DNA of 28,203 nt, from positions 1 to 28,203 of the forward strand of contig WLTJ01000001.1 in assembly GCA_009705435.1 (NCBI GenBank), read 5' to 3'. Source of the stretch: Actinomycetota bacterium. GTDB lineage: Bacteria; Actinomycetota; Acidimicrobiia; Acidimicrobiales; Ilumatobacteraceae. Shown piece after piece: positions 16,158 to 18,634 of this stretch (within the stretch, counting starts at the first letter, position 1; each line of letters opens with the position of its first letter). The position numbers were made by a program, and so were the translations under genes. Below the pieces are notes generated by a model that made no database searches, was not told the DNA's origin, and worked only from the letters and a program-made list of their open reading frames with translations.

Positions 16158-16769
16158 TCAGGCGTGTTGAGACTGGCGAACCGAAACCAACGGCAATAAG
16201 AACTGCACCAAAGGCCCAATACCGAACATAAACACCACGGTCCCGATACCGACCTTACCCCCAAGCAATTGACCTGCTACGAGGACTGTTACTTCGATCA
16301 AGGTGCGCGCCAGGCGAATACTCAGGAACCGTCCAAAAAATTTCCGCTTAGTCATTCCGAGCATGATCCCATCGCGTGGCCCCGAACCCAAATCTGATCC
16401 GAGATACATCGCTGTTCCGATGCCCACGACAACGAGTCCGGCCAGTACCAGCAAAAGTCGCACGGCGAGATTATTCGTTTCACCGAAGAACTGCTTGCTG
16501 ACATTCACCATCAGCCCGATTTCAAGAGCGTTCAAAATCGTTCCTAAACCTGGTTTTTGACGCAAAGGAATCCACAACAGCAAGAGCAATAAACCTGTTC
16601 CGACAATCACAATGCCCACTGAAATATCGAGGCGTTCGGCAACACCCGTATGAAAAATATCCCACGGTGCCAAACCAAGATCAGCGCGAATAAATAATGT
16701 GATCCCGATACCGAAAAGAGCCAATCCGGTTACACACCGAAGCAACTTCTCAGCAAAAAGTTTTGTCAT
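16158..16769 (-). CDS. YczE/YyaS/YitT-family membrane protein
   Basis: LGLAPWDIFH, PGLGTILN, LGSGPRDGIM and GGKVGIGTV signature motifs. The start overlaps the ahcY stop (TGATG). Confidence 0.88.
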   Translation of the reverse strand: MTKLFAEKLLRCVTGLALFGIGITLFIRADLGLAPWDIFHTGVAERLDISVGIVIVGTGLLLLLLWIPLRQKPGLGTILNALEIGLMVNVSKQFFGETNNLAVRLLLVLAGLVVVGIGTAMYLGSDLGSGPRDGIMLGMTKRKFFGRFLSIRLARTLIEVTVLVAGQLLGGKVGIGTVVFMFGIGPLVQFLLPLVSVRQSQHA

Positions 16770-18220
16770 CAGTAGCGGTAACGCTCAGACTTAAATGGAC
16801 CCGATGGAGCGACGCCCAAATACTCGGCCTGCTCATCTGTGAGTTTTGTCAACTTTACACCTAAGGCGCCGAGGTGCAGTGAAGCTACCTTCTCGTCAAG
16901 ATGCTTAGGTAACACGTACACACCTAACGGATATGCCGCGAGATTAGTGAACAATTCGATTTGGGCGATGACCTGATTAGAGAATGAACAACTCATCACG
17001 AAACTTGGGTGACCAGTAGCGCAACCGAGGTTCACTAAGCGTCCTTCAGCCAAAACGATGATCGCATGCCCATCAGGGAATGACCAGAGGTCGGTGCCAG
17101 GCTTCAGTTCATCGCGGGTCGCTCCGCTACGTGCCAGACCAGCCATGTCAATTTCTGAGTCAAAGTGCCCAATATTGCAGACGATTGCGTTGTGCTTCAT
17201 TTTTGCCATGTGCTCAACAGTGATGATGTGATCGTTGCCTGTCGCGGAAACAAAAATATCTATTTCGTGAATCACATCTTCAAGAGTGGTTACTTGGTAA
17301 CCCTCCATCGCTGCCTGCAAAGCGTTGATCGGATCAACTTCGGTGATGATCACTCGTGCACCTTGACCACGCAGTGCCTGAGCACAACCCTTGCCGACAT
17401 CTCCATAACCACAGACAACGGCAACCTTGCCAGCGATCATCACATCGGTGGCCCGGCAGATGGCGTCAATGAGCGAATGGCGACAGCCGTACAAGTTGTC
17501 AAACTTCGACTTCGTCACCGAGTCGTTGACGTTGATCGCTGGGAACAACAACTCGTTGCGCTCCGCCATTTTGTAGAGGCGCATAACTCCAGTCGTTGTC
17601 TCTTCGGTGACACCCTTCACTCCAGCGGCCATCCGAGTCCATTTGTTGGGTTCGGTCTTGAGGCCGCGCTGCAATAAACCGAGCACGATGGCAAGTTCCG
17701 GATTGGAAGCCGATGTTGGATCTGGAACTACGCCAGTCTTTTCGTACTCCACACCCTTATGCAACAAGAATGTGGCATCACCGCCATCGTCAAGAATCAT
17801 GTTCGGACCATCACCATCAGGCCATGTCATCATTTGCTCGGTGCACCACCAGTACTCCTCGAGGGTTTCACCTTTCCAGGCAAAAACTGGCACGCCATCG
17901 GGACTATCCAAAGTTCCGTGAGGACCAACCGCAATGGCGGCAGCGGCGTGATCTTGGGTTGAGAAAATATTGCAGGATGCCCAACGAACTTCCGCTCCCA
18001 ATTCGACCAAAGTCTCAATAAGGACTGCCGTCTGAATGGTCATATGCAATGAACCAGAGATACGCGCACCCTTGAGTGGCTTAGTTGCTCCATACTCTTT
18101 GCGCAAAGCGCGAAGACCGGGCATCTCATGCTCGGCAAGATGAATCTCCTTGCGCCCAAAAGGGGCCATAGAAAGATCGGCGACGCGGAAGTCTTTACGT
18201 TCGGCAAATGAAGATGACAT
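16769..18220 (-). CDS. ahcY: Adenosylhomocysteinase (SAH hydrolase)
   Basis: [39 protein letters not shown] and GYGDVGKG. The start is revised from 18274 to ATG 18220, which has SD AAGGAG (18232-18227) 6 nt upstream. Confidence 0.98.
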
Positions 18221-18258
18221 GTGGGGCTCCTTGATAGAAATCTGACAACGGGTGAGAC

Positions 18259-18287
18259 AAAAACAAGCCATCACGTGATGGCTCGCT
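18259..18287 (-). terminator. Intrinsic-terminator-like hairpin with U-tract, ~40 nt upstream of the ahcY start
   Basis: Minus strand CGAGCCATC-ACGT-GATGGCTTG-TTTTT-GTCTC: a 9-bp stem (one G-U), extendable to 11 bp, followed by five U. Confidence 0.75.
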
Positions 18288-18339
18288 GCTTGCTCTATCC
18301 CGGGCAGGGGCCTACTGGCACCAATCAGACAGCCCGATT
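18259..18339 (-). ncRNA. Candidate structured leader (riboswitch/attenuator) or ~80-nt small RNA upstream of ahcY
   Basis: Bounded by a TAGACT -10 box (18350-18345) and the terminator, and contains several alternative helices. I could not match it to a riboswitch class I recognise. Confidence 0.4.
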
Positions 18340-18366
18340 GTCCCAGTCTAGGCAGTAACTCGCGCT

Positions 18367-18390
18367 CTCTCGGGACATAGTCGCCGAGAG
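18367..18390 (-). terminator. GC-rich hairpin immediately after the Trm112 stop (no U-tract)
   Basis: Minus strand CTCTCGG-C-GAC-TAT-GTC-CCGAGAG begins 4 nt after the TAG stop. Confidence 0.5.
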
Positions 18391-18394
18391 CAAG

Positions 18395-18634
18395 CTATTT
18401 TGAGCGACCGGTGGTCTTAATCCCGCCAGCAGCAATCTTGGCCATGATGCGCTCGTGCTCTTGAGCCGAGACAACTTCTGACTCATCTACCAGCATCACT
18501 GCGATGGAGTCACGCACGGTATAGCGACGCTGCAAACGAGTGTTATACAAAGAGTTCTCATCCTCCAAGATGTGCAAAACCCCCTTGTCAACTGGACAGG
18601 CAAGCACTGAGGCAAGTTCGGGATCAATAGGCAT
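18395..18634 (-). CDS. Trm112-family protein
   Basis: LACPVDKG...LYNTRLQRRYTVRDSIAVMLVDE. The start is revised to ATG 18634, with SD AAGGAG at 18646-18641; 79 aa. Confidence 0.9.
   Translation of the reverse strand: MPIDPELASVLACPVDKGVLHILEDENSLYNTRLQRRYTVRDSIAVMLVDESEVVSAQEHERIMAKIAAGGIKTTGRSK

Follow-up and report, generated by a model that had tools for sequence, protein, structure and literature searches.

The window analysed here, the whole 28,203-nucleotide stretch of contig WLTJ01000001.1, belongs to the 1.8 Mb, 76%-complete genome of a freshwater member of the Acidimicrobiales. On its minus strand lies ahcY, the proposed controlled gene, which encodes S-adenosylhomocysteine (SAH) hydrolase (Pfam AdoHcyase, E 1e-145; NCBIfam ahcY, 638 bits) and is a classic target of expression-activating SAH riboswitches (Weinberg 2007, PMC1950547). 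The start of a gene for a yczE-family membrane protein (16769–16158) overlaps the ahcY stop codon (TGATG, 16771–16767). Upstream of ahcY, also on the minus strand, a Trm112-like ORF (18697–18395) ends with a TAG stop and leaves a spacer of 174 nt. The intergenic RNA, folded over 186 nt, is more stable than its shuffled versions (z −3.5). An in-frame GTG at 18274 is an annotation trap, from which gene callers can stretch ahcY across part of the leader. A preliminary description of this DNA had noted a TAGACT box (18350–18345), a hairpin followed by a U-run, a Shine–Dalgarno (SD) sequence AAGGAG (18232–18227) and the ahcY ATG at 18220, and all of these are present in the window. The features of the locus are as follows.

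18345–18350, minus strand: −10 box TAGACT (TAnnnT type), read from the sequence
18298–18343, minus strand: full covariance-model match to the ahcY-leader motif, 46 nt (model R1, 52.3 bits, E 2e-7)
18330–18336, minus strand: 5' strand of stem P1, CGGGCUG (RNAalifold stem)
18323–18329, minus strand: J1/2, the 5'-side internal loop UCUGAUU, 7 nt, with a conserved GA
18308–18322, minus strand: hairpin P2, GG-U-GCC / AGUA loop / GGCCC, 5 bp with a one-nucleotide bulge and an nGnn loop
18322–18317, minus strand: 5' strand of P2, GGUGCC
18316–18313, minus strand: loop of P2, AGUA
18312–18308, minus strand: 3' strand of P2, GGCCC
18301–18307, minus strand: 3' strand of P1, CUGCCCG, with a U.U mismatch opposite U18331
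18259–18287, minus strand: clade-specific hairpin (18287–18262) and overlapping U5 (18263–18259), from a terminator scan and folding
18224–18232, minus strand: SD AAGGAG (18232–18227), then AGCCC (18228–18224)
16769–18220, minus strand: ahcY, S-adenosylhomocysteine hydrolase, 483 aa, ATG at 18220

The motif lies directly 3' of the −10 box. The UCGGGC/GCCCGG pairing proposed in the preliminary description proved to belong to the conserved stem P1; that description mentions neither the inner hairpin P2 nor the family-wide nature of the 5' ~46 nt. The U.U mismatch in P1 (CUGCCC) is common to this genome and its two closest relatives (L003 and L150). Because of this mismatch, the minimum free energy (MFE) fold of the isolated element in this genome is an alternative hairpin, CAAUCGG/CUGAUUG (18340–18322). 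In the isolated 5' segment, this hairpin is predicted at −14.6 kcal/mol, compared with −11.3 kcal/mol for the core consensus pairs alone. The local hairpin AAUCGG/CUGAUU suggested earlier is therefore real, in the sense that it forms the predicted MFE of the isolated 5' segment, where it is extended to CAAUCGG/CUGAUUG. In the MFE of the full-length leader, GGGCU of the P1 5' strand pairs with the AGCCC (18228–18224) right after the SD.

Among 41 related genomes, ahcY could be located in 39, and inspection of the sequences upstream of it provided 29 usable ahcY 5' regions. The motif is present in 21 of these 29 regions as a conserved structured block of ~45 nt after a TAnnnT box, with the consensus cGGGCUG-A..yGAnn-GGuGYC-AGnn-GRCCC-CrGCCCg. 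The leaders L013, L015–L018, L021, L023 and L026 contained no convincing diverged copy, even with the search filters off. The leader of L018 has a hairpin of similar arrangement, for which homology could not be established. Within the window's own genome, covariance model R1 gives a single match (18343–18298). As the larger samples were searched with strict filters, their match rates are lower bounds: of 151 genomes sampled from the order, 18 have an R1 match, which in 16 of them immediately precedes ahcY; the two matches elsewhere are among the weakest. A 151-genome sample of the class yielded 15 genomes with a match, all of the order Acidimicrobiales, and all 11 new ones carry it upstream of ahcY. 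No R1 match was obtained under these strict filters in ~115 genomes from other families of the class.

A pattern scan blind to gene context was run over 185,579 species genomes, and the first 80 loci were inspected. The match lies directly upstream of ahcY at 71 of the 80 loci, and three more represent the same leader cut by a contig end (74/80); the other six are unrelated loci in Thermoleophilaceae, Desulfacinum, two Streptomyces, Thermoguttaceae and Devosia. By record name, carriers of the motif belong to Ilumatobacteraceae, Microthrixaceae including Candidatus Microthrix, Iamiaceae, Acidimicrobiaceae and Aldehydirespiratoraceae. The motif occurs at ahcY in more than 100 related genomes, with one copy per genome, and is retained across families whose ahcY sequences are only ~67–75% identical. 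It is always on the sense strand, 27–106 nt ahead of the ahcY start, with a median leader of 54 nt among 112 distinct leaders.

The preliminary description had stated that the leader fits none of the known SAH- or SAM-sensing consensuses, and the Rfam comparison agrees, with no match to SAH, SAM-I to SAM-VI or SAM-SAH. No Rfam family matched the whole window at gathering thresholds, nor positions 18150–18450 at E ≤ 10 with permissive filters, and no match over the motif was found at 20 homologous loci. A literature search whose coverage left out most subscription journals found no published description of the motif. The copies in relatives and the absence from Rfam bear out the earlier proposal of an unannotated conserved structured RNA at this site. 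The motif is a real, conserved and previously uncatalogued RNA in the ahcY leaders of Acidimicrobiales.

Like the SAH riboswitch RF01057, reportedly the subject of a 2008 study by Wang et al., the motif is a probably cis-acting leader directly upstream of ahcY and consists of P1, a 5'-side internal loop and the hairpin P2. The expected logic would also be alike, with ahcY turned on when SAH accumulates. In contrast to RF01057, the motif has no 3' tail and no pseudoknot and shows neither sequence nor covariance-model similarity to that family. It is smaller (~40 nt, compared with 78 model positions), is found only in Acidimicrobiales, whereas RF01057 occurs mainly in beta- and gamma-proteobacteria, and was found at ahcY alone, never at metH or metF. 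The same gene context and the loosely similar layout of P1, 5'-side internal loop and P2 would suit a highly diverged RF01057 riboswitch that the Rfam model misses. We consider this extremely unlikely, given that RF01057 gave no match at E ≤ 10 on the leader or at the 20 homologous loci and that the leader did not reach the RF01057 gathering threshold of 37 bits. The boxes GAGGAGC (J1/2) and AACGGCGCUC (3' tail; pseudoknot) are absent from the 127-nt leader, as is pairing of a 3' tail with J1/2. The best RF01057 match in the window's own genome, a weak one of 23.8 bits on contig C276, lies antisense inside the HPPK (folK) gene and is due to chance.

The nearest analogue in context is the SAM-Chlorobi motif, which lies in the leader of metK-ahcY operons. 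Preliminary in-line probing of it showed binding of neither SAM nor SAH (Weinberg et al. 2010, PMC2864571), a precedent that counts against ligand sensing by the present motif. Both elements are lineage-restricted, promoter-proximal and linked to an ahcY-containing operon, and a ligand is established for neither. They differ in phylum, SAM-Chlorobi being from Chlorobi, and in operon (metK-ahcY), and SAM-Chlorobi gave no match in the Rfam scan, in which we assume this family to be included. The SAM/SAH riboswitch is located upstream of metK in Rhodobacterales and has a pseudoknot that contains the SD. Both SAM/SAH and guanidine-II riboswitches have simple secondary structures (PMC5737381). The motif resembles SAM/SAH and other small riboswitches in its very small putative aptamer, simple fold and narrow phylogenetic range; it differs from them in consensus and by the lack of a match to their Rfam models. 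The existence of such small, simply folded riboswitches means that an element of ~40 nt can be a real riboswitch.

RNAalifold analysis of 16 distinct copies gave two stacked helices, P1 (GGGCUG/CrGCCC) and P2 (GG-n-GYC/GRCCC), which are separated only on the 5' side, by J1/2. The length of P1 is 6–9 bp across the family. In the 88-sequence alignment A3, 95.6% of cells are standard pairs, compared with 27–60% when the 3' partner is slid. Since the A3 rows were fitted to the model and 59 of them were retrieved with a pattern in which many positions are fixed, we put weight on the pattern-free positions and on changes along the ahcY protein tree. The stretch GGCUG does not vary among the 87 distinct aligned sequences, most of which were picked by a pattern requiring it, and in the GA of J1/2 the G is present in 76 and the A in 70 of the 87. 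The partner of U15 (U18331 here) is A in 65 sequences, G in 47, U in four and C in one, so that it is paired in 112 of 117, with at least six A/G switches on the ahcY tree. Pair 9-49 is G-C in 85 sequences, G.U in 19 and C-G in three (paired in 107/117), with 12 changes among paired states. The middle pair of P2 is C-G in 68, U-A in 48 and U.G in one (paired in 117/117), with three changes. J1/2 varies from 6 to 12 nt, with at least 21 length changes on the ahcY tree, and P1 is kept throughout. In the P2 loop, position 1 is mostly A and position 2 is always G; positions 3–4 are free, with 33 changes.

Pairing of the motif at the RNA level is supported by these aligned sequences. The compensatory evidence is thin because the middle P2 pair reflects only ~2–3 events, and most of the pairing support comes from wobble switches, not from independent double changes. 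The wobble states, the variable spacing and the asymmetric conservation of the loop argue for an RNA rather than a DNA operator. An operator for a transcription factor, spanning +1 to +45 of the ahcY promoter, would be in keeping with the position of the element immediately downstream of the −10 box and with inverted repeats that are conserved in sequence beyond complementarity. Repeated wobble switching (U-A in 65 sequences versus U.G in 47, and G-C in 85 versus G.U in 19) would nevertheless place mismatches in DNA, and a rigid DNA-protein interface would not tolerate an outer half-site spacing of 6–12 nt with 21 changes. Conservation of the loop is also asymmetric, with positions 1–2 kept and positions 3–4 free. 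We therefore regard the operator as highly improbable.

Folding of the isolated element gives the consensus structure as the MFE in 105 of 133 instances, and in a mutual-information scan for further covarying columns the P2 pair alone stands out. Three candidate extensions of the fold were rejected. Pairing between the 5' flank and J1/2, as a pseudoknot or alternative hairpin (CAAUC/GAUUG, here and in some Ilumatobacteraceae), is not a family feature because columns 6-27, 7-26 and 5-28 are paired in only 29–51% of the 87 sequences. Pairing of J1/2 with downstream sequence in the manner of the SAH class, striking in single lineages such as L035, L037 and L059, does not overall exceed that obtained with swapped (p 0.18) or shuffled J1/2 sequences. 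P1 does not extend outward either, since the 16-nt flanks did not differ from mismatched partners in duplex energy (p 0.07) and the mRNA probably begins a mere 1–7 nt ahead of this stem.

The predicted transcription start in this genome (~18339–18337) is 1–3 nt ahead of P1. Across the family, a TAnnnT box lies 7–15 nt upstream of the motif's GGCUG in 122 of 133 distinct leaders, compared with 17 of 133 shuffled upstream regions, and the position of this box places the start of the P1 stem 1–7 nt from the predicted mRNA 5' end. Such a position in nearly all leaders would suit a constitutive 5' stem-loop that senses nothing and that shields the mRNA against 5'-end-dependent RNases or defines a site of processing or pausing. 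The consensus fold being the MFE in 105 of 133 instances would fit this function, as would the shortness of many leaders (minimum 27 nt, median 54 nt), which leaves too little room for an obvious expression platform. Nevertheless, a stem of this kind would not need GGCUG, GA, nG and CCCC to be invariant across families whose flanks diverge, nor would its restriction to ahcY be expected. We consider the constitutive stem-loop quite improbable.

Four lake metatranscriptome runs carry near-identical sequence, as contigs only; such contigs are blind to transcript ends and strand, and DNA carry-over is possible. In contigs X1 (17934–18329) and X4 (18081–18312), ahcY, the downstream hairpin and part of the motif are joined without interruption, which is in keeping with transcription that begins upstream of the hairpin and continues across it. 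At most, the ends of these contigs at 18329, where adapter sequence follows, and at 18312 hint weakly at a 5' end close to the motif. The stretch 18330–18466 is covered by none of the runs, and gaps in contig coverage are uninformative. The alternative promoter considered in the preliminary description (18266–18239) is not favoured, in view of the TAnnnT box in 122 of 133 leaders and of the RNA-library contigs that span the hairpin into the motif.

The hairpin and U-run described earlier are present (11 bp, 18287–18262, with U5 at 18263–18259) and look like an intrinsic terminator in sequence. The hairpin lies within a longer stem closed by GGG (18300–18298) and CCC (18252–18250), and other members of the genus have a homologous long GGG/CCC-closed stem 3' of P1. 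The terminator scan alone is not above chance (two sites, versus 1.1 ± 1.1 in shuffles); L003 and L150 retain the hairpin and U-run, with G-C pairs replaced by G.U. The hairpin and U-run that the preliminary description read as an internal terminator are not a defining part of the element: no more than 6 of 112 distinct leaders have a hairpin with a U-run, which is accordingly a clade-specific add-on. The joint conservation of leader element, GC-rich hairpin and U-run expected of an intrinsic-terminator attenuator is not seen across the family. Simple antitermination is not evident because the terminator hairpin does not overlap the putative aptamer, and no convincing antiterminator was found in the window's leader. 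One candidate, UGAU-U-GG (J1/2-P2) with CCAUCA (5' arm of the terminator), was found by inspection only, in a comparison of three near-identical sequences, and was rejected as weak.

In the clade with this hairpin, the motif, hairpin and U5 might mainly constitute a stand-alone sRNA of ~80 nt ending at 18259, with ahcY expression depending on read-through or on a different start. Such an sRNA would suit the 11-bp hairpin and U5 that lie ~80 nt past the predicted start and are kept in L003 and L150. The rarity of the hairpin and U-run among the 112 leaders speaks against it, as does the constant sense-strand position of the motif 27–106 nt before ahcY. In addition, contigs X1 and X4 cross the hairpin from ahcY into the motif (with the reservation of DNA carry-over), and the internal promoter proposed for ahcY has a poor −10 box (CAGATT). 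This makes the sRNA very unlikely.

The set of competing helices in the preliminary description does not hold as a conserved structure, since its long-range helices are not conserved. The post-terminator helix GACAA-U-CGGG/CCCG-UUGUC can form here, yet it is broken without compensation in L003 and L150. The helix GAUAGAG/UUCUAUC is unchanged in L003 and keeps 6 of 7 pairs in L150, but it is absent from the next clade (L004). The helix GACAAUCGGG/CCCGUUGUC of the preliminary description was rejected, not being conserved in relatives. Sixteen of 104 leaders, most of them from Ilumatobacteraceae, have the sequence AGCCY close to their start codon, too few for AGCCY beside the SD to serve as a universal mimic of the P1 3' strand.

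From this evidence, the motif is very probably a cis-acting RNA element at the 5' end of the ahcY mRNA. A riboswitch is a reasonable candidate because the motif is consistently tied to ahcY, and this gene association points to SAH as the candidate ligand. The association is of the kind seen in riboswitch classes: a conserved structured 5' UTR element at a gene of one pathway, with variable downstream platforms (leaders of 27–106 nt, terminator-like hairpins in 6 of 112). The motif may thus be an SAH-type riboswitch, a candidate new class that turns ahcY on; this is our best reading, and we give it a little less than even weight. Slightly more tentatively, we propose a new riboswitch class for SAH, or for a different compound of the methyl cycle, for example adenosine or homocysteine, that is ~40 nt long, lies at the extreme 5' end and is confined to Acidimicrobiales; it would represent the second natural SAH-selective aptamer fold after RF01057.

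The simplicity of the hairpin, the location of the best-conserved nucleotides in the stems and the mostly variable J1/2 count against a ligand pocket. Such stem-centred conservation is equally compatible with recognition by a protein, with overlapping alternative pairings and with a pocket, and it makes a protein-bound leader the main and a serious rival. In this case, a regulatory protein that controls ahcY translation or decay would bind the hairpin; it could be a specialised RNA-binding regulator, or AhcY could act on its own mRNA in feedback. Recognition would depend on the conserved sequences of the stems and on the GA and nG loop, with no small-molecule pocket. Conservation concentrated in helices and a few loop or bulge nucleotides, with a J1/2 that varies in sequence and length, is compatible with this scheme, as are the small simple structure, the single site per genome at ahcY and the lack of a detected pseudoknot or tertiary contact. 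On the other hand, no candidate protein is linked to the motif, the neighbours being only the Trm112-like and yczE-family genes, and retention across families with ahcY ~67–75% identical and with variable platforms is also typical of riboswitches. We judge protein binding unlikely overall; the constitutive stem-loop, the stand-alone sRNA and the DNA operator are less likely than it.

We return to the candidate riboswitch, for which we infer ligand binding, the identity of SAH as ligand, the ON direction and specific alternative pairings. The ligand, presumably SAH, would lock P1–P2. Without it, the P1 5' strand and J1/2 would be free to pair elsewhere, in this genome as CAAUCGG/CUGAUUG or, in the full-length leader, as GGGCU with the AGCCC beside the SD, and these alternative pairings would reduce translation or destabilise the mRNA. 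In this clade, the downstream hairpin and U-run may add a layer of transcription termination. The alternative pairings predicted in the window would suit a switch and are features of its clade; no conserved switching helix or pseudoknot was found across the leaders. In a thermodynamic prediction with the aptamer favoured, SD accessibility rises in 30 leaders, the window's clade among them, falls in 18 and is unchanged in 64, the related sequences not being independent of each other. This trend would weakly fit an ON switch that acts mainly on translation or mRNA stability.

SAM-dependent methyltransferases are strongly inhibited by SAH. To our knowledge, one dedicated SAH riboswitch class is known, mainly from proteobacteria, besides the SAM/SAH class, which binds both compounds, and we are aware of little on SAH sensing in actinobacterial lineages. 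At 46 nt, and with over 100 natural variants, the motif is a well-defined and very small RNA for study. Its carriers are abundant Acidimicrobiales of freshwater, marine and wastewater habitats, some of them named for groups with cultured representatives (Ilumatobacter and Ca. Microthrix). Should the motif bind a protein, the methyl cycle would appear to have a post-transcriptional regulator that is still unknown. Should it bind SAH, this central metabolite would gain a new aptamer fold, and the RNA could serve as a compact scaffold for biosensors.

The conserved ahcY leader motif was repeatedly lost or gained, because it is absent from four species of the window's own genus (L013 and L015-L017) and its presence or absence changes 8 times on the ahcY tree. 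The spacer between the Trm112-like gene and ahcY is short in L015-L017, in which ahcY starts with GTG, and longer in L013, in which the start codon is ATG. The ahcY leader of L018, a genome from another family of Acidimicrobiales whose ahcY is 80% identical to that of the window, contains the following element:

L018 3006-3077, minus strand: ahcY-leader hairpin, GGUCG/CGACC around UCCCG-UGAG-CGGGA, located 3' of a TACACT box

This hairpin is similar to the motif in layout but different in sequence, and receives no score from the covariance model built from the leaders of relatives. It could be a diverged variant of the motif or an unrelated structure.

The Acidimicrobiales ahcY leader is also carried by several lake-metagenome MAG records named "Bifidobacterium breve" or "uncultured Bifidobacterium sp." (L074, L076, L087, L089, L102, L103, L111, L133, L150, L154, and L175). 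The ahcY genes in these records, leaving out L150, L154, and L175, share 78-93% identity with that of the window, and the organism names look wrong.

A match of 23.8 bits to the SAH riboswitch model was found in L051, a locus of the window's own genome (1501-1556, corresponding to G000:C276:3744-3799, minus strand). Its GAGG.GC and AACGGCGCUC boxes are good, but its P2 has 8 nt. The match lies antisense within an HPPK (folK) coding region and was rejected as a chance hit.

Further features of the window are:

18357-18394, minus strand: long GC-rich hairpin, core CUCUCGG/CCGAGAG, immediately 3' of the stop codon TAG (18397-18395) of the Trm112-like gene
18274, minus strand: in-frame GTG in the loop of the terminator-like hairpin (18287-18262), opening a 501-aa ORF (16769-18274)
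16767-16771, minus strand: overlap of the ahcY stop and the yczE-family start, TGATG
16769-16158, minus strand: yczE-family membrane-protein gene (NCBIfam NF052291, 216 bits)

The hairpin at 18357-18394 has no U-run and is kept only in part in the two closest relatives (L003 and L150); it may be a U-less terminator for the upstream manB/Trm112-like operon. The ATG start codon at 18220 follows AAGGAG by 6 nt and agrees with the AhcY N-termini of relatives. Gene callers that pick the GTG at 18274 would make ahcY 18 codons longer, extending it across the 3' arm of the terminator-like hairpin and the Shine-Dalgarno sequence and hiding part of the leader. At the other end of the gene, a yczE homologue is present in 49 of the fetched loci, and ahcY and the yczE-family gene are probably translationally coupled and share one common leader.
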